Made by a program: the position numbers and the translations under genes
The notes under the pieces: generated by a model
The model's input: the letters and a program-made list of their open reading frames with translations, nothing else
Database searches by the model: none
Told to the model about the DNA's origin: nothing
Assembly: GCA_028714455.1 (NCBI GenBank)
Contig: JAQTMG010000006.1
Span: 1-56,443, forward strand
Direction: 5' to 3'
Source of the DNA: Patescibacteria group bacterium
Lineage (GTDB): Bacteria > Patescibacteriota > Patescibacteriia > CAIXNZ01
Length of the DNA: 56,443 bases
Part shown: positions 2,632 through 31,117 of the stretch, in pieces
Numbering within the stretch: position 1 is the stretch's first letter
Layout of the letters: each line of letters begins with the position of its first letter

Positions 2632-4441
2632 CCTGGCCCTCGCTCACGCCGCTCTTTATTTCGGTTCCCGTATCGCCCTTGAGTCCGGTCTCCACGTTGA
2701 TTTGTTTGACCGTGTTGTTGAAACCCAAAATCTCGACGTATTTTTGCCCGCTGTCTGTCTGCTTAATGGATCGCGATGAGAGATACAAAACATTGGGCGC
2801 GCTCGCCGTCATAATATCCACGTTGGCAGTCATGCCTGATTTAATTTCGTTTTGAGACGGATCGAGTTTAACCTTAACTTTATAATAGATGACGTCAGAG
2901 ATCACTGTCTCGGCCACGTCAATGGCTGAAACGGCGCCGGAAAATTTCACGTCATTGCCGTAAGCATCTAGGGTTATATTGGCCGCGTCGCCAATCTTTA
3001 CTTTAATAATGTCTGATTCTGGCACATCAACGTCGATCTCAAAGTTGCCGTTGCCCAGCATGGAAATAGCCGACTTAACCACACTGCTGGAACTCGCGCC
3101 CGAGACCGGACTGGCCTGTTCACCCACCTTGTAGTTTATGAAAGTGACCACGCCATCGGCCGGTGCCGTGATGGTATAATCAGCCAGATGATATTTGGCC
3201 AAATCCAGGGCGGCGGCGGCCTGCGAAACCTGCGCCTGATACGAAGCGATGTCAACTTTTCTGGGCGCGGCTTTTTTCAGGGACAGCTGCGCCTTGGCCA
3301 GATTGTAAGCGCCCAGAGCAGAATCAGAAGAAGCCTTGGCGTTAGCAAGCTGCGAATCTTTGCCGGCTAAAATAGAATTTAAACTATCCTGCGCATTTTT
3401 CAAATTTGCCTGCGCCGTATCAAGAGAGCTGGAAGAAGCCAGCGAAGTATTTTTATAAGCCTGATCAGCCGCCTGCAAAGTTGAGATGGCGGCGCTGTTG
3501 GTCGCTATCTCCGAATTCACCAACGCCTTGCTTTGATCAACCAGCGTCTGCGAGAATCTGCTATCAACTATAGTACTGCTTATAGCGTTGAAAAGATTAT
3601 TCAAACTTATGCTGATATAACTTAAAATAGTTTGGATATCATTTGAGGCAAGATTTAAATCACTTTCGCTGATTGAAACGTCTGCCTTGTCGAGCAAATT
3701 TTTAAGCGGCGTTTGAACGTCACGCGCCAGACCATAATAATACATGATATTACTTTCGGCCTGAATGTCGGCCACCACGCCAAGATTATTGTGCTGGTAA
3801 TTTATGAAATCGAGTGAGGAATTGGCGGCAATCGCCGTATTTCGGATCGTGGTAATTAATGACTGGCGGACATTCACGCCTGTCTGCCCGGTAGTGGCAC
3901 TAGCGTTATCAAGCGCTTTTTGCGCCGCCTCAACGGCGGCTTGATAAGTTTTTACGTCTGCATCAATTTTGGCAGAGAGCGTATCATAATTTATTTTGGC
4001 ATTATCATAAGCAATTTTGGCGTTGTTAACCGTCTCCTGCGTCACGTTCACGTCTTCCGGACTTGCTCCAGCCAAAAATTTCTGTAAATTGGCGCTGGCA
4101 ATATCTAAATTGGCCTGGGCTTGCTTGACTTGTAATTGCAAATCCTGCGCGTCTAGGGTAGCCAAAACCTGCCCGGCTTTCACCTGGTCACCTTCACTTA
4201 CTAAAATCTCTTTGATCGTACCCTGGGCTTGAAAATTTAAATCAAGCGCCTGTGGCGCGATGACCGTGCCTGTTTCCGAAACGGTTTGAACCAAATCCCC
4301 CCGCTTGACCTTTTCCGTTATAAATTGGGCCCGCTGGGTGTTATTGGCATTTACCATGAAATAAACAACGCCGCCGACTATCAAAATCAGCAGCACCCAA
4401 AATAGCTTTCTTTTCAATAATTTTTTGAAAAATTCTTTCAT
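2609..4441 (-). CDS. HlyD/MacA-family periplasmic adaptor with very long coiled-coil
   Basis: 610 aa. N-terminal TM, lipoyl-like motif (GDQVKAGQVLATLD), about 350 aa of Ala/Gln/Leu-rich helical repeats, C-terminal beta-barrel (VVTFINYKVGE...). Sits upstream of the ABC ATPase and permeases. Confidence 0.8.
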   Translation of the reverse strand: MKEFFKKLLKRKLFWVLLILIVGGVVYFMVNANNTQRAQFITEKVKRGDLVQTVSETGTVIAPQALDLNFQAQGTIKEILVSEGDQVKAGQVLATLDAQDLQLQVKQAQANLDIASANLQKFLAGASPEDVNVTQETVNNAKIAYDNAKINYDTLSAKIDADVKTYQAAVEAAQKALDNASATTGQTGVNVRQSLITTIRNTAIAANSSLDFINYQHNNLGVVADIQAESNIMYYYGLARDVQTPLKNLLDKADVSISESDLNLASNDIQTILSYISISLNNLFNAISSTIVDSRFSQTLVDQSKALVNSEIATNSAAISTLQAADQAYKNTSLASSSSLDTAQANLKNAQDSLNSILAGKDSQLANAKASSDSALGAYNLAKAQLSLKKAAPRKVDIASYQAQVSQAAAALDLAKYHLADYTITAPADGVVTFINYKVGEQASPVSGASSSSVVKSAISMLGNGNFEIDVDVPESDIIKVKIGDAANITLDAYGNDVKFSGAVSAIDVAETVISDVIYYKVKVKLDPSQNEIKSGMTANVDIMTASAPNVLYLSSRSIKQTDSGQKYVEILGFNNTVKQINVETGLKGDTGTEIKSGVSEGQDVIVYQK

Positions 4442-5641: not shown

Positions 5642-6148
5642 TTAATACAGATTGATTCGATCAAATAAGCCATTGATAATTATCTTCAAAATACTCTGGA
5701 AAAAATCAGGGTTGATGATATAAACCGCGGTTAAAGATCCGATACAAATAACTACCGAGAGCCACTTAGTATAAATGCCGGCGGTGCGAAAAAACAGAAC
5801 CACGGCTAAAATGGCGGATAAAATCGGACCAAAAATTTTGATATCACCCAGGGGCAAATAATAACCGCCCACGTATTTACTTTCTTCGCCAAAAAAAGTG
5901 GCTAAATCAAAATTAACCTTGAAAATTATTAAAATAGCTTCCAAAACTAAAATGATCAGCAAGGCAATCGCGGAATATTGAGTAGTAGCGCCTTCTTCGG
6001 TGCGATAAATTTCGTAAATAACGGCGGGTAATAATCCGACTATAATCCACAAGGAATTATGGGAATAAAAAGAGATAATCGCCATAATCACGGTGAGGAC
6101 GGTTAGAAGCGTGCAATATAACGCGGCGTTTTTAGTAGGCTTGGCCAT
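5642..6148 (-). CDS. Hypothetical integral membrane protein (about 5 TM)
   Basis: 168 aa, hydrophobic throughout, no recognisable motif. Confidence 0.6.
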   Translation of the reverse strand: MAKPTKNAALYCTLLTVLTVIMAIISFYSHNSLWIIVGLLPAVIYEIYRTEEGATTQYSAIALLIILVLEAILIIFKVNFDLATFFGEESKYVGGYYLPLGDIKIFGPILSAILAVVLFFRTAGIYTKWLSVVICIGSLTAVYIINPDFFQSILKIIINGLFDRINLY

Positions 6149-6243
6149 AATTTTATTTTTTAATTAACTCCGCTTCCCGCTTTATTACGCGAGCCTGGCG
6201 GTTAAAATTTTAATTTTGTTTATATATTCTTCTTATAAATAAA

Positions 6244-8391
6244 CTAAAATAACACTTCCAGTTTCCCGACCATGGAATTTTGAATGGAAAAAGTCAGGTG
6301 CAGAGTCAGACCTATCCTGGAAACCCACAGATTTCCGCCCTCGGACTCGTCGATTTTATAACCCAGTCCTTCATAATATCTTTGTACCGCTTCCACGTCC
6401 GCCCGGGTGGTCTGTCTCGGAAAATAGTAAGTAAGCCACAAACCGCTTGTGTTATCGGTCATCTTCACCTGATTATTAAATAACTGATTGAGTATCGGTA
6501 AAAGCTCTTGATTAATCTGCTGGCTTTTTTCAGTCTCTATCTTGCCCGAAGTGGCATTTTCAAAATTTATCTGCGGCCAAGTTTTAGCGGTGGGCGGAAT
6601 ATTTGATTGGCCGCCGGTTGCAGAGGCGGGATTGGCTGGCGTCAAAAACGAACAGGTTGGCGTTACGGCAATCTTTTTATACAAGCAGATATTTCTCGCT
6701 GTATCACTGATGGCCCAGACTTTTTCTGCCACTTTTTTATTGACGCTTAAAGTCGCGTCACTACTCACGCCAACGCTCATGTTTTGTACGACTAGATATT
6801 GGCTTCTGTCCTCAAGAGTCGCTTCACGATAATCCGTCACAAAGACGCAAGCGCTCACTCCGCCGTTTGCGTCAACTTTTATCAGAGCCGCCTCTTTATA
6901 TGGTTCCATACTTAACAACACTTTGTGCATTTTGGTGGTCAACATACTCCCGGATACAACGACCCCCTTATCAGCCGTGGGGGCGATATTGAATCCGGAC
7001 AAGTCTCTTTCCAGATCAAATTTTTTAATCCAGATCGGATTAAATTCGGAGTCGACTTTAATTAGCTCAATGTTGGACGCCAGAGCTTTGGCTAAAACGG
7101 CCAGATCTTTCGAGTCTACTTTGGTGCTGTCGCGAACTATATCTTGCATAATGACAAAGTTATTGTCCGCCGTCTTAACCACCTGGAAATCATTGCCCGT
7201 GGTGCTCGAGGTCAAATTGATCGTTAATTTTTTGGCCCACTGATAATTGCCTGCCGCGTCAATCTTCACGGCTATGAACGGACGCGGGGTAAAACTTGTA
7301 ATCTGGCTACCGACTCCGCTGTTCAAACCCCGAGTCAAAAGCAGATTGTCAAAACCAATTGCCAAAAAACCGCCGTCGGCGGTTGGCTGAACCGCTCTGA
7401 AATCACCGCCCATAATGCGAATGACAGTTTTGCCAATAGTCAAACCGTTTTCATAGCTGGTCGGGGCGTTTATCTCCGAAGGAATCATTTCCAGGGTTTT
7501 AGCCCACTCCGTATTTAAACCACTATTTAATTTAATAACCGTCGGCAGATCGCCCATAGACACTTCTGGTCCCACCACATTTTCCGCGTGTTGAGTCTCT
7601 GGTAAAGCAATTTTGGCCAAGGCGATAAAGCCGCCATCAGACAGACGCTCCATGTCGACCGCCTCCCAATTCATTTTTTTAAGTGATGTTACCTTTCCAT
7701 TTTTATCAATAGTAATCAGGGCGCTGTACTTTGGCACGGCATCTATGTCAGCCACATCAAAACCATAGCCTGTCTGTGCCAGTCGCGCCAAAAGTATTAC
7801 GCTGTTGTCTGACAGAGCCCACATTTTTTGTGGACGATCCACACTATAATTGCCGAGCATTACTGACCAGGTTTGAGTGCCCTTGGCGTTAATTTTGGTT
7901 ACCAAAATATCGCCTGACACTTCCAAAACTTTTTCATATTTGGCATCAATGAAATCTACGATGTCGCTAGCCGTGACAATACCACCATCAGCCGTCTCTA
8001 CGGTTATGTGCGGCTCGTGACTAGTTGATGAATCGCGAGGCGGCAAACTCTTACTGCTAAACTGTCGGCTCCATAAAAGATTACCCTTTGAATCGGTTTT
8101 AATTAGAAAGGGGTTGGGAATCGCCATACCCGAACTGGCAATGGTATCGCCAGCCAATAAATATCCGCCATCTTTAGTGGGTAAAATATCAAAACCATCT
8201 GTGTTGTCGCGCAGATGATATGTCCTAACCAGCGTGGCCGAACTCACCGAACTAGTGGAACAAGTGCTGGCGATTTGAAATTGTTCTTTTGACAATACGC
8301 TCACGGCAATCCCTACCATGCCCAAAAATACCAAAAAAATCATGAAAGATTGCTTGGATAGAAAAATATTGGTTTTATGAGTTTTACGCAT
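6244..8391 (-). CDS. Secreted repeat protein, beta-propeller-like (DGG[YF]-type repeats)
   Basis: N-terminal TM/signal. Recurrent T/A-DGG-[YFI]-hydrophobic-AG blades (TKDGGYLLAG, TADGGIVTAS, LSDGGFIALA, TADGGFLAIG). The ORF-track start is TTG; first ATG is at 8391. Confidence 0.7.
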   Translation of the reverse strand: MRKTHKTNIFLSKQSFMIFLVFLGMVGIAVSVLSKEQFQIASTCSTSSVSSATLVRTYHLRDNTDGFDILPTKDGGYLLAGDTIASSGMAIPNPFLIKTDSKGNLLWSRQFSSKSLPPRDSSTSHEPHITVETADGGIVTASDIVDFIDAKYEKVLEVSGDILVTKINAKGTQTWSVMLGNYSVDRPQKMWALSDNSVILLARLAQTGYGFDVADIDAVPKYSALITIDKNGKVTSLKKMNWEAVDMERLSDGGFIALAKIALPETQHAENVVGPEVSMGDLPTVIKLNSGLNTEWAKTLEMIPSEINAPTSYENGLTIGKTVIRIMGGDFRAVQPTADGGFLAIGFDNLLLTRGLNSGVGSQITSFTPRPFIAVKIDAAGNYQWAKKLTINLTSSTTGNDFQVVKTADNNFVIMQDIVRDSTKVDSKDLAVLAKALASNIELIKVDSEFNPIWIKKFDLERDLSGFNIAPTADKGVVVSGSMLTTKMHKVLLSMEPYKEAALIKVDANGGVSACVFVTDYREATLEDRSQYLVVQNMSVGVSSDATLSVNKKVAEKVWAISDTARNICLYKKIAVTPTCSFLTPANPASATGGQSNIPPTAKTWPQINFENATSGKIETEKSQQINQELLPILNQLFNNQVKMTDNTSGLWLTYYFPRQTTRADVEAVQRYYEGLGYKIDESEGGNLWVSRIGLTLHLTFSIQNSMVGKLEVLF

Positions 8392-12502: not shown

Positions 12503-13051
12503 TTATTTTTTGGAAAAAACACACCCGCAATAATCTTGTCTATACAAGCCCAATTGTTTAGCCAGCCAATCAGAAACCTGCACGCCAAAATTCTTTTTAA
12601 AATCCCAGTCGTAAAATTTCACTCTATATTTACTTTCGGCTTTGCGGCCAGCATCTAAAACCTGCAAAGAATTTTTCTGCCTGCCCATGGTTAAAGTCGT
12701 AGAAAACCAGTCAAAATTATTTTCTTTGGCATAACCGGCTGTTTTACCGAGGCGAAAATTAAAGCATAGATTGCAGCGAAATCCTTTTTCCGGCTCATGT
12801 TCAAAACCCCTGATAAAATTTAGCCAAGATTTGTTGTCATAATCTTCTTCAACATAATCAAGACCCCGACTCTGGCAAAATTTCTTAATTTCTGAAAGCC
12901 GCTGCAAATATTCTTCCTCGGGAAAAATATTGGGATTGAAAAAATAAACAGTCAGATCAAATTTATCCAAAAGCTGATTAATTATATAGATACTGCACGG
13001 CGCACAGCAAGTATGCAATAACAATTTTTGTTTATGATTTTCAGACACCAT
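12503..13051 (-). CDS. queH: Epoxyqueuosine reductase QueH (DUF208)
   Basis: 182 aa. N-terminal LLLHTCCAPCS and C-terminal YRQDYCGCVFS cysteine motifs typical of DUF208. Confidence 0.85.
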   Translation of the reverse strand: MVSENHKQKLLLHTCCAPCSIYIINQLLDKFDLTVYFFNPNIFPEEEYLQRLSEIKKFCQSRGLDYVEEDYDNKSWLNFIRGFEHEPEKGFRCNLCFNFRLGKTAGYAKENNFDWFSTTLTMGRQKNSLQVLDAGRKAESKYRVKFYDWDFKKNFGVQVSDWLAKQLGLYRQDYCGCVFSKK

Positions 13052-15925: not shown

Positions 15926-17656
15926 TTATGATTTAAGCCATTTTTGCAATTTTTCCAAATCCCAGGAATTAATCACATCGTTTTTCGTGGCCCAGCCGCG
16001 GCGAGCCGTGGCAATGCCATATTTAATCAAATCCATGTGTTCAAGAGCGTGGGAATCAGAATCAATGCAAATTTTACAGCCATAACTTATGGCATCTTTA
16101 ATCAAGGTGTCTTTCAAATCCAAACGTTCTGGAAAGGAATTAACTTCAAGCGCGACTTTATATTTGGCACAAGCCTTAAAAACATCGACCCATTCAACGT
16201 CATAGCCGGGTCTGTGTCCAAGCAAGCGTCCCGAAGGATGACCCAAAACTTTAATCCCCTGTTTTATGGCGGAGATAATACGCTTGGTCATTTCCGCTTC
16301 TGTCTGGTTAAAAGCGGAATGAACCGAGCCAATGCCGTAATCAAGTTTTTTCAAAACTTCTTGGCTGATGTCTAATTTGCCGTCAGCGTTTATATTTATC
16401 TCGGCGCCAGCCAAAAGTTTAATGCCTTTTATTTTTTTATTCACCTTTTCAATCTCGGCTTTATGTTTTAACAGTTGTTGATTCGATAAACCGCGAGCCA
16501 CGCCCAGACCGTGAGTGTGGTCTGAAATGCCCAGATATTTATATTTTTTGGAGATGGCTTTCTGGGCCAATTCTTCAACCGTGTTATGTCCATCGCTGGA
16601 TTTAGTGTGGCAATGCAAATCACCTCGCAAATCATTATAGCCGATCAGCTTCGGCAGTTTGTGAGCCAGGGCCGCTTCAATTTCTCCCCTATCCTCGCGC
16701 AATTCCGGCTCTGGATAATCCAGACCCAAAAATTCATAAACCTTTTTCTCGTCGCTAAAATGATAAAGTTTATTTTTTCTCAAATCTTTAACGCCAAATT
16801 CTGATATCCTGATTTTATTTTTTTCAGCCCAGGTTCTCAAGTGAACATTATGCTCTTTGGAACCAGTAAAATGTTGCAAAAGCGAACCATAATCAATTTC
16901 AGGCAAAATTTCCACATCCATTCTGATATTTTTCTTATGCAAGATGGAAATCTTGGTATCGCCTTTCATCAAAATATCTTTCACAAAGGGCGCTTTGGCA
17001 AAATATTCCACAATTTCTTTTGGCTTTGGGGTTGAAGCAACCAAATCAATATCGCCAATCGTTTCCTTCATTCTGCGCAATGAACCAACCGCGTCACATC
17101 TTTTTACCAGTTTATTTTTCTTTAAATAATCAAGCGCCTCGTCTGCCAGCGGTCCAGCCGTGGTCAAAACCATGCGCTCGCGCTCTTTCATCTTGGCGCT
17201 TAATTGCTCAATTCCTCGCAAAATATTTTGAGCGGACTTTTCTTTAAAATGAGGCAGTTTTAAAAGCTCGCCGCTTTTGGCAGCTTTTTCAAGTTTGCTA
17301 ATGCTGTCTATTTTTAACTTTTTATAGAGCGCAAAAGCCGTCCTCGCCCCGATTCCAGGCACGCTTGTCAGCACTAGCATTTTTTCAGGGAACTGTTTTG
17401 TTAGTCGTTCATAATATTTCAGATGGCCTGTTTTTATCAGTTCCTCGATTTTCTCGGCAATACTTTCGCCGACTCCGGGAATTTCCTCAAGCGCCTTGAT
17501 TCCGCCTTCTTTATAAACATCTTCAACATCCTTAGTTAAACTGCCAATAATCTCGGCGGCTCGCTCATAAGCGATAACACGAAAACGAGTCTCACCTTTT
17601 ATCTCTAAAATTATGGAGATATTCTTAAAAATTTGGGCGAATTCCTGGTTGGTCAT
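15926..17656 (-). CDS. polX: DNA polymerase X family protein with C-terminal PHP domain
   Basis: HhH motifs, Pol-beta nucleotidyltransferase core (GSLRRMKETIGDIDLV), PHP histidines (DLHCHTKSSDGH). The ORF-track GTG start lies inside a terminator hairpin, so ATG 17656 (MTNQEFAQIF) is used. Confidence 0.9.
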   Translation of the reverse strand: MTNQEFAQIFKNISIILEIKGETRFRVIAYERAAEIIGSLTKDVEDVYKEGGIKALEEIPGVGESIAEKIEELIKTGHLKYYERLTKQFPEKMLVLTSVPGIGARTAFALYKKLKIDSISKLEKAAKSGELLKLPHFKEKSAQNILRGIEQLSAKMKERERMVLTTAGPLADEALDYLKKNKLVKRCDAVGSLRRMKETIGDIDLVASTPKPKEIVEYFAKAPFVKDILMKGDTKISILHKKNIRMDVEILPEIDYGSLLQHFTGSKEHNVHLRTWAEKNKIRISEFGVKDLRKNKLYHFSDEKKVYEFLGLDYPEPELREDRGEIEAALAHKLPKLIGYNDLRGDLHCHTKSSDGHNTVEELAQKAISKKYKYLGISDHTHGLGVARGLSNQQLLKHKAEIEKVNKKIKGIKLLAGAEININADGKLDISQEVLKKLDYGIGSVHSAFNQTEAEMTKRIISAIKQGIKVLGHPSGRLLGHRPGYDVEWVDVFKACAKYKVALEVNSFPERLDLKDTLIKDAISYGCKICIDSDSHALEHMDLIKYGIATARRGWATKNDVINSWDLEKLQKWLKS

Positions 17657-17687
17657 ATATAAACATTTTACCATTTTTAACAAAAAA

Positions 17688-17772
17688 GGGCGAAAACGCC
17701 TTGAATAAAAAGTAGAGACGCGGTGCACCGCGTCTCTACATAAAATTTAACATTGATATTGCGTTTTCGCCC
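17688..17772 (-). terminator. Nested double terminator: 12-bp hairpin inside a 12-bp long-range stem
   Basis: Inner GTAGAGACGCGG-TGCA-CCGCGTCTCTAC (17712..17739) plus U5. Outer GGGCGAAAACGC (17688..17699) pairs perfectly with GCGTTTTCGCCC (17761..17772), followed by U6 on minus. Confidence 0.65.
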
Positions 17773-26392: not shown

Positions 26393-26505
26393 TTCTTGTA
26401 AAATTTTTGCAGGTCTGCACCTGCCGAAGTCTGCCGAATTTTAACATGCGCGAAAGTCTGCCTTCGCAATCCCAGCCGTGCTGGTCTTGCTTCGGCAGAC
26501 GAAGG

Positions 26506-27386: not shown

Positions 27387-27466
27387 AAAATTTTATTTTA
27401 TTTTCAAACTCTCGGTGTTGTTACCTTAGCGAAATCGTCCATAATTATTTAATATCTAGATGCCTG

Positions 27467-27512
27467 CCCCGCATATCGAGCGAAGCGAGATGTTGCGGGG
27501 AGCTAAGGTGGC
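27467..27512 (-). other. 13-nt duplicate of the tRNA-Thr(UGU) 5' end fused to a CCCCGCA/TGCGGGG hairpin
   Basis: Minus strand GCCACCTTAGCTC (27512..27500) equals the first 13 nt of the tRNA at 27386. It runs directly into CCCCGCA-21 nt-TGCGGGG. Confidence 0.6.
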
Positions 27513-27518
27513 AAATAT

Positions 27519-27998
27519 TTAAGCGAATTTTCCAACAAGGATCCCAATCAAAATTGCTGCGCCGCCAAGCACAACCATTCTGATGCCGCGGCTGATTAAA
27601 CTGACATTGGAAATTTTGGCCATGGCTATGCCGACAAAAAATAAAGCCAAAATGGAAAAGGCAATGGAAATATATAATGCTGACGACAGACCAAAAATTA
27701 TATACGGCAAAATCGGTATTAAGGATGCCAGTACAAATGAAACAAACATTACCAAAGCCGCCACATAAGGTCCTTTATGAAAAATTGATTTTTGGGCCTT
27801 ATATTCCAGAGTGCACTGCTCTGAAAGATAGCCGCCGACTGCCATGGAAAATGCCTCAACAAAAGCATAAATTAAACCAGTTGTAATAATGGCTATCCTA
27901 GTGGTACCGCTGACGTCAATGCCAGCGAGCAAACCAACAGTAGAAACTAAGCTGTCGGCGATGCCAAAAACTATATTTCTAACGTAAACTTCATTCAT
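27519..27998 (-). CDS. VIT1/CCC1-family iron/manganese transporter
   Basis: FGIADSLVSTVGLLAGI and VEAFSMAVGGYLSE motifs. Start at MNEVYV; the longer ORF runs through a perfect hairpin. Confidence 0.8.
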   Translation of the reverse strand: MNEVYVRNIVFGIADSLVSTVGLLAGIDVSGTTRIAIITTGLIYAFVEAFSMAVGGYLSEQCTLEYKAQKSIFHKGPYVAALVMFVSFVLASLIPILPYIIFGLSSALYISIAFSILALFFVGIAMAKISNVSLISRGIRMVVLGGAAILIGILVGKFA

Positions 27999-28011
27999 AA
28001 TTTTAAACTTT

Positions 28012-28035
28012 TTCGGTGGGTCTAGACCCACCGAA
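28012..28035. other. Perfect palindromic hairpin 14 nt upstream of the VIT1 start
   Basis: TTCGGTGGGTC-TA-GACCCACCGAA, 11-nt arms. No U-run in either direction, so it is not called a terminator. Confidence 0.6.
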
Positions 28036-28097
28036 GCCCGACTGATTATTTAATAATTATCTTGCCCTCCTTCGCATAAAGCTACGGAGGGCGAAGG

Positions 28098-28304
28098 TGG
28101 GCAGGGGTAGATTCGAACTACCGAAGGCTTACGCCAGCAGATTTATCCCGCACCAAAATACAACGACTATTGGGCGGAGTAGGATTCGAACCTACGAAGC
28201 CGTGAGGCAACAGATTTACAGTCTGTCCCATTTGACCGCTTTGGTATCCGCCCTTATTTATATTTTTGGTGCGGGACCCCAGTTGACCGCTTTGGTACCG
28301 ACCC
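28098..28304 (-). other. Split tRNA-Tyr-like gene whose halves are joined by a 13-bp helix enclosing tRNA-Tyr
   Basis: 5' half 28304..28277 (acceptor plus D-arm, 23/28 identical to the real tRNA-Tyr). Helix strands 28276..28264 and 28158..28146. 3' half 28145..28098 with variable arm, T-arm GGTAG-TTCGAAT-CTACC and acceptor strand. Confidence 0.6.
28171..28253 (-). tRNA. tRNA-Tyr(GUA), class II with long variable arm
   Basis: 83 nt. Acceptor GGGCGGA/TCCGCCC, anticodon loop CTGTAAA, variable arm TGCCTCACGGCTTC, T-arm GTAGG-TTCGAAT-CCTAC. Confidence 0.9.
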
Positions 28305-28403
28305 AGAGTTAATAAAAAGTTCTGATTAAAAAATCAAAACCTTTACAAACTCTATTATATAAAATTATTAAAAAAAAATCAAGGTCTATTGTCACTCTAA
28401 TAT

Positions 28404-28637
28404 TCAAGGATAATCTATGCAGCTTTCAAAATTATCGGGGCGGCACCTTTGCAGCCTTTGCCAACTTTTTTTACAACCCTTCCAAAAACCATATTTTTGA
28501 ATTGCCATAACTGCATATTCAGAACAGGTGGGATAAAAACGACAATGCACCCAGCGGCTCAAAATTTTGGATAACGTCTTTTGATAAAGAATAATTGCTT
28601 TTATGGCTATTTTTTTCTGCAAATTATTAAACTTCAT
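28404..28637 (-). CDS. yidD: Membrane protein insertion efficiency factor YidD
   Basis: CRFYPTCSEYAVMAIQKYGFWKG motif, 77 aa. Confidence 0.85.
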   Translation of the reverse strand: MKFNNLQKKIAIKAIILYQKTLSKILSRWVHCRFYPTCSEYAVMAIQKYGFWKGCKKSWQRLQRCRPDNFESCIDYP

Positions 28638-28968
28638 AATTTATCTGCTCCTTTATTATTGCTCTGGAATTGCATTTCGGACATTTATCAAAATTAACTA
28701 TATTCTTGTGATAAACATTTCCAGCGCCATAACAACCTAAACGGTAACAACCCAAATTATTTCTGGCATTTTCTTTCAGATCTTTTTTGCCATAATACCA
28801 AACATTACCGCAAGACTGACAAGTGCATTTTGTTTCCTGAATTTTTTTACCCTGATTATTAGGTGCAATATTCCCTGCGACTGGAGTATTATCAAATTTA
28901 GTTTTACAATATCGGCAAAAAATCGCTTCATCTTTTATTTCTTCAGCACAAGATGGACATTTTTTCAT
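28627..28968 (-). CDS. Multi-zinc-ribbon protein, hypothetical
   Basis: 113 aa. CPSC..CRYC, CQSC and CPKC pairs. Confidence 0.6.
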   Translation of the reverse strand: MKKCPSCAEEIKDEAIFCRYCKTKFDNTPVAGNIAPNNQGKKIQETKCTCQSCGNVWYYGKKDLKENARNNLGCYRLGCYGAGNVYHKNIVNFDKCPKCNSRAIIKEQINYEV

Positions 28969-29969
28969 AAAATTCTTTTTTTTAATAATAAAAGGTGATG
29001 ATTATATGCCTCTGTAAAATTATTAAATGCATCAAAATTACTAAACAAATATCCCTCTTCCAAACCATCTTCCGATTGAAATAATAATTGTCCATATTTA
29101 ACAATGGGAATTTGATAATTCGCGTTAAATCGCTTGTCCATAGTTCCATCTTTATTCGCCTTCTTCCACGTGTGGTTAATAATCTCAGTATCTTTTGGGA
29201 CACTTTCTTCTTCAATATATCCCGTAAGTTCAAAAACACCCTTTACATCTTTTAGGTCAAAAATGCCAAATTTCTGATTATCTTTAAATAAAACTATGAA
29301 AGTAGGATAAATAAATATATCAGCACCGTTAGCATTGGGGAGAAAAAGATAATCTAAATCACTTTTTATAAAATCAATATCCTTTCGAATATTACCGCTG
29401 ATTAGACTACGCTTTATTGAAGTTTTTGCAATTGTTCTCATCTTCACCCTGTCCGCATCTTCTGTATATGTTAAATCCCATATTTTTTCGCTTTTCATTA
29501 GTTCAATGAAGGCATCAGTACAATTTAACCAACTCTTTTCAATTTGAGATTTATCTAAAAAGGTAAGTTTTACATAATTTTCTGAAATTTGTTTTTCAAA
29601 TCTTTTTATCTCTATTCGTTGATTACTTCTAGCCTCTTTAATTTTTTTGTAGAAAAAACCAAATATTAAAATAAAACTAACAAAGTAAGCGAAATTTAAC
29701 CAAAAAAGTTTAAATTTTGCTGATTGTAGTTTTTTAAGGAGTTCTATTTTTTGATTATGAATTTCTGTTATCCGTTGACGTAATTCAACAAAATTTTTAC
29801 TTGTAACATCGAGAGCTTTATTAGAGCTTCTTATAACATTGCCTACATTAAAATCATCTTTGCTCTCATATTTTTCATTATTATCAGCCAAACTACTTCC
29901 ACAATGTTTACATTTTATAGCTTCATATTGTATTTCTTCAGCACAATAAGGACATTTTTTTGTAGCCAT
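28965..29969 (-). CDS. Zinc-ribbon / coiled-coil / single-TM protein with unknown C-terminal domain
   Basis: 334 aa. N-terminal CPYC..CKHC, TM FWLNFAYFVSFILIFGFFY. ATGA overlap with the next gene. Confidence 0.6.
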   Translation of the reverse strand: MATKKCPYCAEEIQYEAIKCKHCGSSLADNNEKYESKDDFNVGNVIRSSNKALDVTSKNFVELRQRITEIHNQKIELLKKLQSAKFKLFWLNFAYFVSFILIFGFFYKKIKEARSNQRIEIKRFEKQISENYVKLTFLDKSQIEKSWLNCTDAFIELMKSEKIWDLTYTEDADRVKMRTIAKTSIKRSLISGNIRKDIDFIKSDLDYLFLPNANGADIFIYPTFIVLFKDNQKFGIFDLKDVKGVFELTGYIEEESVPKDTEIINHTWKKANKDGTMDKRFNANYQIPIVKYGQLLFQSEDGLEEGYLFSNFDAFNNFTEAYNHHLLLLKKRIL

Positions 29970-29974
29970 AATAA

Positions 29975-30201
29975 TAAACTAGTAATTATTTATGATATGC
30001 CAGGGTATTACTTCTCACGATACCAGCTGCCATATTACTCAAAATTGAGCCGTTGCGCGGAATTGCCTGTCCGCCGACCTTCGTCGGTCGAAACCGACTT
30101 CGGTCGGTGAAGACCGAAGTGCAATAAAGGCGGAAACCGCGGACCTACTCCTTACTCCCGAACTATGCTTCGCAAGTTCGGGACAGGCATGGAGTTGCGG
30201 C
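29975..30201 (-). other. GC-rich structured trailer/leader RNA region (unclassified)
   Basis: Nested helices CCCGAACT/AGTTCGGG and CTTCGGTC/GACCGAAG, plus CCGAC/GTCGG words, in a region much more GC-rich than the flanking genes. Confidence 0.35.
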
Positions 30202-30309
30202 ATTTATCCCGCACCTTCTAAAAAAGCCCACGAGCAGATTTGAACTGCTGACCACCTCCTTACCATGGAGGTGCTCTACCAACTGAGCTACGTGGGCAGA
30301 AGGTGCGGG
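30202..30309 (-). other. 12-bp leader-trailer helix clamping tRNA-Thr(GGU)
   Basis: CCCGCACCTTCT (30309..30298) abuts the tRNA 5' end. AGAAGGTGCGGG (30219..30208) follows the tRNA 3' end after U5. Trailer continues ATAAAT. Confidence 0.7.
30225..30297 (-). tRNA. tRNA-Thr(GGU)
   Basis: 73 nt. Acceptor GCCCACG/CGTGGGC, anticodon loop ATGGTAA, T-arm AGCAG-TTCAAAT-CTGCT. Confidence 0.9.
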
Positions 30310-30325
30310 GCCAGCTGAGCTGGCA

Positions 30326-31117
30326 TTACAAATTATTTAATTCTTTTTCAAACTCAAGAATCTTTTGATTTTCAGGATTAACCTCCTTAAGGGTAGCTAG
30401 AGTACGACTGGCAGTTTCCTTGTCTTTCGCTAAAATGCTTGAGGTCAAAAGTAAATCAAGATACTTCGGATTGTTCGGTGCGCTTGCCAAGGCTTTAATA
30501 AGCTTGGCTTGAGCCTCTTCATGATTACCTGATGCTTCGGCAATTTCTCCCAAGCTGGCGTAAGCCAGAGCGTCTTGCTCGTTTAATTTAAGTACGTGCT
30601 CAAAGGTTTGCTTGGCTTCTTCATAGTGTTTTTGGTCTAGATAGATATTGCCTAGACCGCGATAAGCAGAAATATTTTTCGGGTCCAAGCCAATCGCTTC
30701 AATATATTTTTTTTCGGCTAAATCGTAATTTTCTTCTTTGGCCAGTTTCTCTGCTTCAGCGATGACCTCGTCTAAATTTTTCTCCAAACCCTCAAACTCT
30801 TTCTTGGTAACTAAAACTTCTTTTTTCGCTTTTTTTCTATTTCTTTCTTCCAGCGCCGCCATCTTATTTTTAAAATCGTCAATTTTTCTCGCCAAAAAAT
30901 TTCCTATGGTTTTGAAAATCGGGTGTATTTTGCTGTAAATGTGCTTGGCTTTTCTGATCAACCTTTCCTCCATTATTTTCTGCTTGGTCTCCGCCTCTTT
31001 TTCTTCCGGAATTGAATTAACGTCAAAAGCGGCCAGAAGCGGCAATTTCTTGGCGATGATAAATAAAATCACGGCCAAAGAAAGCAAAATAATAATAAGT
31101 GGAATGATGTTGTACAT
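30326..31117 (-). CDS. TPR-repeat protein with N-terminal TM anchor
   Basis: 263 aa. TM, Lys/Glu coiled-coil, then TPR units (AYRGLGNIYLDQKHYEEAKQTFEHVLKLNEQDALAY...). Confidence 0.75.
   Translation of the reverse strand: MYNIIPLIIILLSLAVILFIIAKKLPLLAAFDVNSIPEEKEAETKQKIMEERLIRKAKHIYSKIHPIFKTIGNFLARKIDDFKNKMAALEERNRKKAKKEVLVTKKEFEGLEKNLDEVIAEAEKLAKEENYDLAEKKYIEAIGLDPKNISAYRGLGNIYLDQKHYEEAKQTFEHVLKLNEQDALAYASLGEIAEASGNHEEAQAKLIKALASAPNNPKYLDLLLTSSILAKDKETASRTLATLKEVNPENQKILEFEKELNNL

Follow-up and report, generated by a model that had tools for sequence, protein, structure and literature searches.

Small palindromic elements of bacteria, such as REP sequences and REPINs, MITEs (among them the Correia elements of Neisseria) and the Rickettsia palindromic elements, are short, GC-rich, gene-less and bounded by inverted repeats. 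They occur in multiple copies with shared ends, form hairpins in transcripts and insert at structurally tolerated sites within genes. We know of none that carries a tRNA as cargo or is confined to tRNA genes. A different kind of cassette is built on free-standing homing endonucleases, for example the GIY-YIG enzyme SegB in the phage T4 tRNA gene cluster. To our knowledge, classical intron-less homing does not leave the target gene split around a full replacement copy.

Integrase-type elements in tRNA genes span kilobases and have an integrase gene of their own. They exchange just the 3' part of the tRNA gene, so that one end of the element bears an intact chimeric tRNA and the opposite end a 3' fragment (PMC9897764). 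For the disrupted tRNAs of archaea, including tRNA-Thr(GGU) of Caldiarchaeum, a mobile-element model was put forward by Sugahara et al. in 2012 (PMC3293823), and split tRNAs are described from Nanoarchaeum (PMC3491384). In the rRNA genes of CPR bacteria, intervening or insertion sequences are frequent, and RNase III probably excises some of them, the ends not being ligated afterwards (PMC11270868). Literature searches yielded no description of whole tRNAs nested in bacterial tRNA genes or of insertions in CPR tRNA genes.

Here, we analyze a complete tRNA-Tyr gene that lies within a split tRNA-Tyr gene in a 56,443-nt stretch of DNA from the Patescibacteria, a group of ultra-small bacteria; this stretch is referred to below in its entirety as the window. 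We consider it probable that a palindrome-ended cassette with a substitute tRNA-Tyr split the resident tRNA-Tyr gene, and that this cassette is a member of a family that enters tRNA genes.

A complete tRNA-Tyr inside a split tRNA-Tyr gene

The nest spans 28304..28098 and is read on the minus strand, where a tRNA-Tyr 5' part is followed by a 13-nt arm, 10 nt, a complete tRNA-Tyr(GUA), 12 nt, a second 13-nt arm and a tRNA-Tyr 3' part:

28277..28304, minus strand: outer 5' part of the resident tRNA-Tyr (acceptor 5' strand, D arm and position 26), GGGTCGGTACCAAAGCGGTCAACTGGGG
28264..28276, minus strand: 5' arm of the insert, TCCCGCACCAAAA, with the conserved core CCCGCACC
28254..28263, minus strand: 10-nt A/T-rich linker from the 5' arm to the inner tRNA, ATATAAATAA
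28171..28253, minus strand: inner complete tRNA-Tyr(GUA), acceptor GGGCGGA/TCCGCCC (ARAGORN, Rfam)
28159..28170, minus strand: 12-nt linker, ATAGTCGTTGTA
28146..28158, minus strand: 3' arm of the insert, TTTTGGTGCGGGA, with the core GGTGCGGG, complementary to the 5' arm at 13/13 positions
28098..28145, minus strand: outer 3' part of the resident tRNA-Tyr, from anticodon U35 to A73

A first-pass annotation had already delineated these segments, and every one of its coordinates proved correct when the sequence was re-read. The inner tRNA-Tyr(GUA), which it had taken to be intact, is called by ARAGORN at exactly 28171..28253 on the minus strand and scores 61.4 bits against the Rfam tRNA family; it does not encode CCA and is the sole intact tRNA-Tyr within the window. 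The arms (28146-28158 and 28264-28276) are perfectly complementary, as claimed, over 13/13 positions at a distance of 105 nt, with a predicted duplex energy of -22.2 kcal/mol. Alignment also reproduces the reported identity of the outer 5' part to the inner tRNA (23/28), and 34 of the 48 positions of the outer 3' part are identical as well. The outer acceptor stem pairs at 6/7 positions, with one G-U pair and one C-U mismatch, and the outer 3' part contains both the GGC-GTAA-GCC variable arm and the perfect T arm (GGTAG TTCGAAT CTACC) previously assigned to it. The fold proposed earlier, an outer tRNA-like body in which the anticodon arm is replaced by a helix bearing a whole tRNA, agrees with the predicted fold. 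The 207-nt transcript folds around the long helix and five linker pairs (z = -4.55 against shuffles), five bases of the 10-nt linker 28254..28263 being able to lengthen the helix.

The insert totals 131 nt (28276..28146), of which 83 nt are tRNA, and there is no ORF inside it. The outer gene lacks the 7 nt CAGACTG, comprising the 5' strand of the anticodon stem together with C32, U33 and G34. Accordingly, the outer halves are unable to make a tRNA: ARAGORN finds nothing in the joined halves and calls a tRNA-Tyr(GUA) once CAGACTG is put back. No target-site duplication was found at the flanks of the insert, CTGGGG and TAAATC. The sequence TAAAT (28145-28141) is ambiguous, as it could belong to the anticodon loop of tRNA-Tyr or to the ATAAAT tail that follows the 3' arm in other nests. 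Its fit to both suggests joining at a microhomology.

Perfect 13-bp inverted repeats within 150 nt are not rare, at least one being present in 15 of 100 shuffled windows. What excludes chance is the context: the arms bracket the tRNA symmetrically, their motifs recur around tRNA-Thr(GGU) and the sites of the arm family are confined to tRNA-derived sequence.

The insert lies in the anticodon-arm region, another nest described below (L137) is interrupted exactly between positions 35 and 36, and archaeal tRNA introns are able to carry other RNAs. These points are compatible with a 131-nt intron, removed by an archaeal-type endonuclease or by self-splicing, which would yield two working tRNA-Tyr molecules per transcript. 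Yet the joined exons are 7 nt short and are not a tRNA according to ARAGORN, and the outer gene is not called even with long introns allowed. By inspection, the junctions of the Tyr nest, the Thr nest and L137 show no bulge-helix-bulge motif; the 13-bp helix runs without a break, and the beginning of the insert forms no 4-bp helix with the 3' exon. Even at E values up to 5, 27800-30500 gives no match to a group I or group II intron, and a group I core does not fit into 131 nt, such introns being roughly 200 nt or longer. On these grounds, we reject splicing as extremely unlikely. The 55 window proteins scanned against Pfam include neither EndA nor an RNA ligase.

The outer halves are the resident gene

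Neighboring proteins match Paceibacterota and Patescibacteria entries, with matches of L33 in Uhr-, Buchanan-, Falkow- and Magasanikbacteria. The genes of the window lie nearly all on the minus strand, and Pfam scans of 55 window proteins detected ordinary housekeeping genes and no integrase, transposase, recombinase domain or homing nuclease.

Anchoring on rpmG identified L132 as the closest relative with the same gene order (L33 84% identical). The VIT-family neighbor of the nest (27519..28031) was discarded as an orthology anchor, its best match being 65% identical and located where the gene order is not kept. The locus of L133, from an independent sample, is identical to that of L132, and both have the order M16 peptidase, TIM, TPR protein, tRNA-Thr(GGU), tRNA-Tyr, tRNA-Thr(UGU), rpmG and tRNA-Trp. 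In L132, tRNA-Tyr is intact and un-nested; it has CAGACTG and equals the outer halves of the window at 75/76 positions (28/28 in the 5' part and 47/48 in the 3' part). The sole difference is a G to T change in the 3' part, which creates the C-U mismatch in the acceptor stem.

An antisense ORF over the nest is present in the protein database, and a protein search with this ORF led to two further relatives, L130 and L131. The outer 5' part is 28/28 identical to the tRNA-Tyr of L131 and 27/27 identical to that of L130; un-nested tRNA-Tyr genes with the same 5' part are found in L130, L131, L141 and L142. The outer halves are thus the resident tRNA-Tyr gene of this genome, and the insert is derived, lineage-specific and recent. 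The Tyr nest is not conserved in relatives, an outcome that the first-pass annotation had said would count against its proposal.

The inner tRNA-Tyr differs from the outer one at 19/76 positions, including three compensated acceptor pairs. Since the inner copy is this divergent while the outer one is nearly identical to its L132 counterpart (1/76 changed), the inner copy is not a local duplicate. It is a different allele and a newcomer. One reading offered earlier, a decayed duplicate disrupted by an inverted-repeat-bounded insertion, is therefore half right: the insertion stands, whereas the supposed duplicate is the original gene, intact in L132.

In L130, an intact tRNA-Tyr is followed by a degenerate fragment, as might be expected if the nest had arisen by local tandem duplication of tRNA-Tyr and decay. 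The same divergence argues against this and against a chimeric assembly of two strain variants, as the outer gene is nearly identical to the single L132 ortholog and the inner one is not. In addition, the arms are not tRNA sequence and are common to other nests, the Thr nest described below is identical in the independent assemblies L132 (JGI) and L133 (Logan), and nests are present in five further contigs from other samples. Local duplication and assembly artefact are very unlikely, and we reject both.

A second nest at tRNA-Thr(GGU)

Checking leader-trailer pairing for all five tRNAs of the window revealed a second nest, 2 kb from the first. This recurrence, like that in other genomes, is absent from the first-pass annotation. 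The complete tRNA-Thr(GGU) is flanked by stretches that are complementary at 12/12 positions:

30324-30310, minus strand: left side of the nest, outer tRNA-Thr 5' remnant, GCCAGCTCAGCTGGC
30309-30298, minus strand: 5' arm, CCCGCACCTTCT
30225..30297, minus strand: inner complete tRNA-Thr(GGU) (ARAGORN, Rfam)
30046..30219, minus strand: right side of the nest, whole
30219-30208, minus strand: 3' arm, AGAAGGTGCGGG
30207-30202, minus strand: ATAAAT after the 3' arm
30187-30156, minus strand: 32-nt hairpin insert in the anticodon of the outer tRNA-Thr
30134-30066, minus strand: 69-nt GC-rich insert in the T loop of the outer tRNA-Thr

The Tyr and Thr arms have in common the core CCCGCACC/GGTGCGGG and the trailing ATAAAT. 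The window contains the 14-mer GGTGCGGGATAAAT at exactly two places; besides the Tyr nest, this 14-mer and the 8-mer CCCGCACC are found in the window only around tRNA-Thr(GGU), at 30208-30309. The inner four arm pairs differ between the two nests yet still pair (AAAA:TTTT against TTCT:AGAA).

Upstream of the inner gene, the outer 5' part is reduced to the remnant listed above. The 3' part of the outer tRNA-Thr(GGU) reads ACTCC ATG[32-nt hairpin]GTAA GGAGT AGGTC CGCGG TT[69-nt insert]CAATT CCGCG CAACGGC T. An intact form of this outer tRNA-Thr (GCCGTTG...CAACGGC) is found in L135, L141 and L142, and the gene is without the inserts in L130, L135 and L141. The GC-rich 190 nt 3' of tRNA-Thr were also considered as a known RNA family. 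They have no Rfam match and correspond to the outer tRNA-Thr with its inserts; at a permissive threshold, tRNA-Tyr and tRNA-Thr are the sole Rfam matches in 27800-30500.

L132 has an orthologous Thr nest, with arms CCCCGCACCTTTT/AGAAGGTGCGGGG and the same anticodon hairpin, in which two compensatory changes are observed (stems TCCCGAACT/AGTTCGGGA in the window against CCCCGCACT/AGTGCGGGG in L132). Two further compensatory changes affect the outer T stem (CGCGG/CCGCG against ATCGG/CCGAT). Between the window and L132, the outer 3' part is as conserved as working tRNAs, whereas the outer 5' part has decayed. The conservation of the 3' part hints at a function rather than a relic.

The window contains one more feature of this kind, orthologous in L132 and L137, with the intact tRNA-Thr(UGU) about 80 nt downstream of it:

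27461..27512, minus strand: 13-nt tRNA-Thr(UGU) 5' fragment GCCACCTTAGCTC, hairpin CCCGCAAC..GCGGGG and CAGGCA

Related nests in other genomes

Two contigs, L128 and L129, came out of a scan of metagenomes for GGTGCGGGATAAAT behind a T loop. Both were thus selected by the arm motif itself, and both contain nests. In L128, tRNA-Asn(GUU) lies between CCCGCACCAAAC.. and ..GTTGGTGCGGG, and the 3' arm is followed by ATAAAT GCCGC and then by the 3' two-thirds of a near-identical tRNA. In L129, tRNA-Thr(CGU) lies between TCCCGCACTTTTT and AAAAAGTGCGGGG within an outer tRNA-Thr whose D loop and T loop both contain GC-rich inserts and which has two 3' fragments in succession. L132 additionally contains cargo-less hairpins with the core CCCGCACC/GGTGCGGG inside tRNA fragments, one of them after a 13-nt tRNA-Thr(UGU) fragment, as in the window.

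Across 186 kb of Patescibacteria loci, CCCGCAC..GTGCGGG forms eight distinct pairs (window, L128, L129 and L132), all in tRNA-derived sequence, and no such pair is found in 0.9 Mb of other bacterial loci. Within the window, neither the arms nor other GC-rich inverted repeats occur outside tRNA loci. The arm family brackets whole tRNAs of three identities in four genomes, at differing positions of the outer tRNA, and ATAAAT is kept after the 3' arm in four nests. The same arm family brackets whole tRNAs inside the remains of tRNAs of the same kind, both here and elsewhere. The base for judging prevalence is about ten lineages and about 8 arm-family sites.

Other nests have different ends. In L137, a tRNA-Thr(UGU) interrupts a second, identical copy exactly between positions 35 and 36; the GC-rich arms differ from those above, and two further 3' halves are present. 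In L136, an intact tRNA-Trp and a GIY-YIG ORF (Pfam E = 7.5e-15) are located inside a split tRNA-Trp, which has a 25-nt palindrome in its anticodon loop and is adjoined by a gene for a large serine recombinase. L142 and L130 contain isolated 5' or 3' tRNA fragments with GC-rich inserts next to intact genes. The insertion point varies from nest to nest (D loop, position 26/27, anticodon loop), and small deletions are frequent at the junctions. This pattern fits insertion of DNA and not a designed RNA.

Viral contigs contain no match to the arm patterns or to the inner tRNA-Tyr allele, and the 5' end of the inner tRNA-Thr matches there only ordinary phage tRNA arrays with other anticodons. GC-rich phage contigs often contain the short hairpin CCCCGCACY..RGTGCGGGG, which resembles a terminator there, so that the core alone is not diagnostic outside the clade studied here. 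Genome contigs were also searched for pairs of tRNA-Tyr D loops separated by 23-53 nt (AAGCGGTYAA..AAGCGGTYAA). Among the matches listed, at least 120, none is near a tRNA and all are chance occurrences or tandem repeats.

The cargo-less hairpins suggest a different order of events, in which the palindrome came first: a GC-rich hairpin without cargo would enter a tRNA gene, and a break at its center would be repaired with an intact tRNA gene as template, which would place the copy and part of its leader and trailer in the loop of the hairpin. A mobile unit with a tRNA would not be needed. Several observations agree with such a course. The cargo always has the identity of the disrupted gene, the linkers across nests measure 0 to 28 nt and resemble native A/T-rich flanks, the inner gene and outer halves of L137 are 100% identical, and the window encodes a family X DNA polymerase. 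At Tyr, the inner gene differs at 19/76 positions and the outer one has changed at 1/76 since the split from L132, which excludes the resident allele as the repair template; the inner alleles are likewise divergent in both Thr(GGU) nests. Moreover, an essential tRNA gene present in a single copy would have to persist in disrupted form until rescued. We consider this sequence of events distinctly improbable, and favor the arrival of a cassette with its tRNA already in place.

Transcription, folding and covariation

The best promoter-like site is found upstream of the resident gene, and none was found inside the insert:

28354..28382, minus strand: TTGATT-17-TATAAT, 10/12, about 50 nt upstream of the outer 5' part

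As this is the sole strong promoter-like site, the transcript that yields the inner tRNA probably begins in the resident gene. Judged by its sequence, the site probably drives the outer part and the inner tRNA together.

The arms covary: both sides have changed in 6/13 pairs, pairing is kept in 93.8% of cells and 0/500 shuffles reach the score. Such covariation could reflect selection at the RNA level or self-correction of a DNA palindrome, as either is compatible with it. If selection is the cause, the helix and the outer halves may be maintained as a processing scaffold, or as a two-piece tRNA-like RNA with its own function, clamped by the 13-bp helix after release of the inner tRNA by RNase P and RNase Z. 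The ATAAAT kept in four nests, the conserved outer Thr 3' part and anticodon hairpin with their compensatory changes between the window and L132, and a layout like that of the Nanoarchaeum split tRNAs (a half, then a GC-rich complementary stretch) all point in this direction.

At Tyr, the evidence is opposed to it, as the nest is absent in the closest relative, the resident gene is 7 nt short and its only substitution breaks an acceptor pair. In the Thr nests, the outer 5' parts (GCCA- in the window, GCCCGCC in L132) show neither conservation nor pairing with the acceptor 3' strand CAACGGC. The varying insertion points also speak against a selected RNA, and template switching could keep the arms of a DNA palindrome complementary without any RNA function. 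Finally, a helix that shields the folding of the inner tRNA from the outer halves was modeled with constrained partition functions and rejected: the cost and probability of the cloverleaf are the same with the arms intact, shuffled or deleted. We regard selection on the helix and outer halves as unlikely. The scaffold and two-piece readings had both been raised in the first-pass annotation; they gain no support at Tyr, with its missing nucleotides, broken acceptor pair, un-nested relative and lack of a folding gain, and what survives of them is the hint of constraint on the outer 3' part of the older Thr nest.

A related possibility is that of a helix-clamped precursor, a tRNA within a tRNA, that RNase P and 3'-end enzymes would process. 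Its outer pieces, joined by the conserved CCCGCACC/GGTGCGGG helix with the ATAAAT tail and additional hairpins, would persist as a two-piece tRNA-like RNA with a role of their own, for instance as decoy, regulator or processing platform. The sole hint of this is again the conserved outer 3' part of the Thr nest with its compensatory changes, and we think such a design improbable.

Proposed mechanism and significance

Under the cassette reading, which we prefer, a 131-nt insertion with 13-nt terminal inverted repeats would have split the resident gene at the top of its anticodon arm and deleted 7 nt of it (12 nt if TAAAT belongs to the insert). The supply of tRNA-Tyr would now come from the inner gene. 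The insert would belong to a non-autonomous cassette family with palindromic ends, whose members enter tRNA genes and may spread horizontally. Such cassettes would be tolerated and able to spread because a working copy of the destroyed gene comes along with them. New cassettes could hit a previous copy and thereby build up layers of 5' and 3' fragments; the layers of fragments in L129, L136 and L137 suggest successive replacements of this type.

At the RNA level, the resident promoter would give a transcript comprising the outer 5' part, an arm, the pre-tRNA, the second arm and the outer 3' part. The arms would pair over 13 bp, extendable to about 19 bp, and RNase P together with 3'-end enzymes would free the inner tRNA, leaving the outer pieces as by-products. 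Candidate movers are a homing-type nuclease, a hairpin-recognizing transposase acting in trans and microhomology-mediated joining. The first of these is represented by the GIY-YIG gene inside the L136 nest.

If this explanation is correct, essential tRNA genes of bacteria with reduced genomes have been repeatedly overwritten by tiny cassettes that bear their substitute. This would provide a simple path to horizontal replacement of tRNA genes, and would mean that selfish DNA can occupy an essential gene without splicing. The nest would also be a natural case of a tRNA expressed from within a tRNA-shaped scaffold, and a bacterial counterpart to the debate over the origin of split and intron-laden tRNA genes in archaea. 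For genome annotation, the outer halves and GC-rich inserts are a source of spurious ORFs and tRNA fragments.

Comparison with known systems

As in MITEs, the terminal inverted repeats described here are common to several copies. The nests differ from small palindromic elements in that the inner arm sequence varies between nests yet stays complementary, and in the lack of a target-site duplication. The likeness to homing cassettes is found in L136, where the gene of a predicted GIY-YIG nuclease lies beside a replacement tRNA in a split resident tRNA, and spread by homing with co-conversion would account for the replacement alleles. In contrast to homing cassettes, no nuclease gene is present in or near the Tyr nest.

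Like integrase-type elements, the insert targets a tRNA gene, is flanked by partial copies of that gene and maintains a working tRNA. Unlike them, it is only 131 nt long, its sole gene is the tRNA and this tRNA is carried whole; the repeats at its ends are inverted and not direct, and a 5' fragment is left behind together with a 3' one. The Tyr nest has neither an integrase gene nor direct repeats of the 3' part.

Among archaeal systems, the Caldiarchaeum case resembles the nests in having a 5' tRNA fragment upstream of a replacement tRNA of the same identity, beside mobile DNA. The complementary, GC-rich stretches of 12-14 nt that follow the 5' half and precede the 3' half in the split tRNAs of Nanoarchaeum have their equivalent in the arms. 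In the archaeal cases, splicing at bulge-helix-bulge motifs turns the pieces into working tRNAs, whereas the Tyr nest is bacterial and without the motif. It further differs from split tRNAs in being a single transcription unit around a whole tRNA, with 7 nt missing and with halves that make no tRNA.

The insertions in CPR rRNA genes (PMC11270868) are found in the same phylum and are likewise hairpin-like inserts in the loops of structural RNAs. That survey is concerned with rRNA genes, and the word tRNA is absent from it. A tRNA is no longer functional once it is cut in the anticodon loop; presumably for this reason, a replacement copy comes with the insert in the nests.

A second nest at tRNA-Thr(GGU)

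The window contains a second nest:

30046-30324, minus strand: tRNA-Thr(GGU) nest

The inner tRNA-Thr(GGU) is enclosed by a 12-bp helix, the core of which is identical to that of the helix in the Tyr nest, and is surrounded by the remains of another tRNA-Thr(GGU). This outer tRNA is itself interrupted twice: its anticodon contains a 32-nt hairpin, and its T loop a GC-rich insert of 69 nt. A 54-aa ORF overlapping the nest (30039..30203) is spurious. We also observe an 8-bp complementarity, GCCTGTCC/GGACAGGC (30181-30188 and 30065-30072), that joins the start of the anticodon insert with the end of the T-loop insert, and which may have arisen by chance.

In L142, a relative carrying an un-nested tRNA-Tyr, a 5' fragment of tRNA-Thr(GGU) is found at 3452-3515, where a 36-nt GC-rich insert separates positions 9 and 10. 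The intact tRNA-Thr(GGU) lies immediately downstream.

Fragments and hairpins at other tRNA genes

A composite feature is kept upstream of tRNA-Thr(UGU) in three lineages: the window, its closest relative sharing gene order (L132), and a relative with a similar nest but other arms (L137).

Window 27461-27512, minus strand: tRNA-Thr(UGU) fragment and hairpin
L132 4747-4800: the same feature
L137 1959-2045: the same feature

It is composed of a 13-nt 5' fragment of tRNA-Thr(UGU), a GC-rich hairpin, and CAGGCA, with the intact tRNA approximately 80 nt downstream. Downstream of the fragment in the window, GCTAAGGT (27428-27421) is complementary to ACCTTAGC, which is present in both the fragment and the tRNA, so that alternative pairings are possible.

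GC-rich hairpins, e.g., GTCTGCCG..CGGCAGAC, are also located immediately 3' of the window tRNA-Trp (26400-26503, minus strand), and tRNA-Tyr has similar CCTTCG.. hairpins after it in the window, in L132, and in L141 (a further relative with an un-nested tRNA-Tyr). These hairpins may represent conserved trailer structures.

Remnants of tRNA-Trp are layered in L136, another relative with a similar nest:

L136 5560-6230: layered tRNA-Trp remnants

The locus opens with GGGGGCGTAGTT, joined to a TCCGCC.. element that includes GGATAAAT, followed by the 5' portion of another tRNA-Trp, whose anticodon loop contains a 25-nt palindrome. After the intact tRNA-Trp and a GIY-YIG ORF at 5901-6149, the locus continues with the matching 3' portion, in which the 25-nt palindrome is repeated. 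The end of the locus overlaps with a gene for a large serine recombinase, on the minus strand at 6123-7679.

In L142, a tRNA-Trp-like sequence 3' of rpmG (4187-4265) received no call by ARAGORN. In its T arm (GGAGG GGCGGCA CCTCC), the TTCGAAT-type loop is replaced.

Gene content of the window and of the tRNA cluster

Among the proteins encoded in the window are a PHP-domain family X DNA polymerase (15926-17728), of the gap-filling or end-joining type, and the epoxyqueuosine reductase QueH (12503-13051). Queuosine modifies tRNA-Tyr and tRNA-Asn, and both are among the identities that occur in nests.

In L141, the interval between tRNA-Thr(GGU) and tRNA-Tyr contains a 23S rRNA intervening-sequence protein gene (3230-3586; PF05635, E = 3.6e-27), which has TTAAC-rich repeats on its flanks.

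Relative to L132, the window has additional genes in two of the gaps between its tRNAs. The gap separating the Thr nest from the Tyr nest (28404-29969) encodes two zinc-ribbon proteins along with yidD, and a VIT1/CCC1 transporter gene (27519-28031) separates the Tyr nest from tRNA-Thr(UGU). The tRNA cluster is an insertion hot spot.
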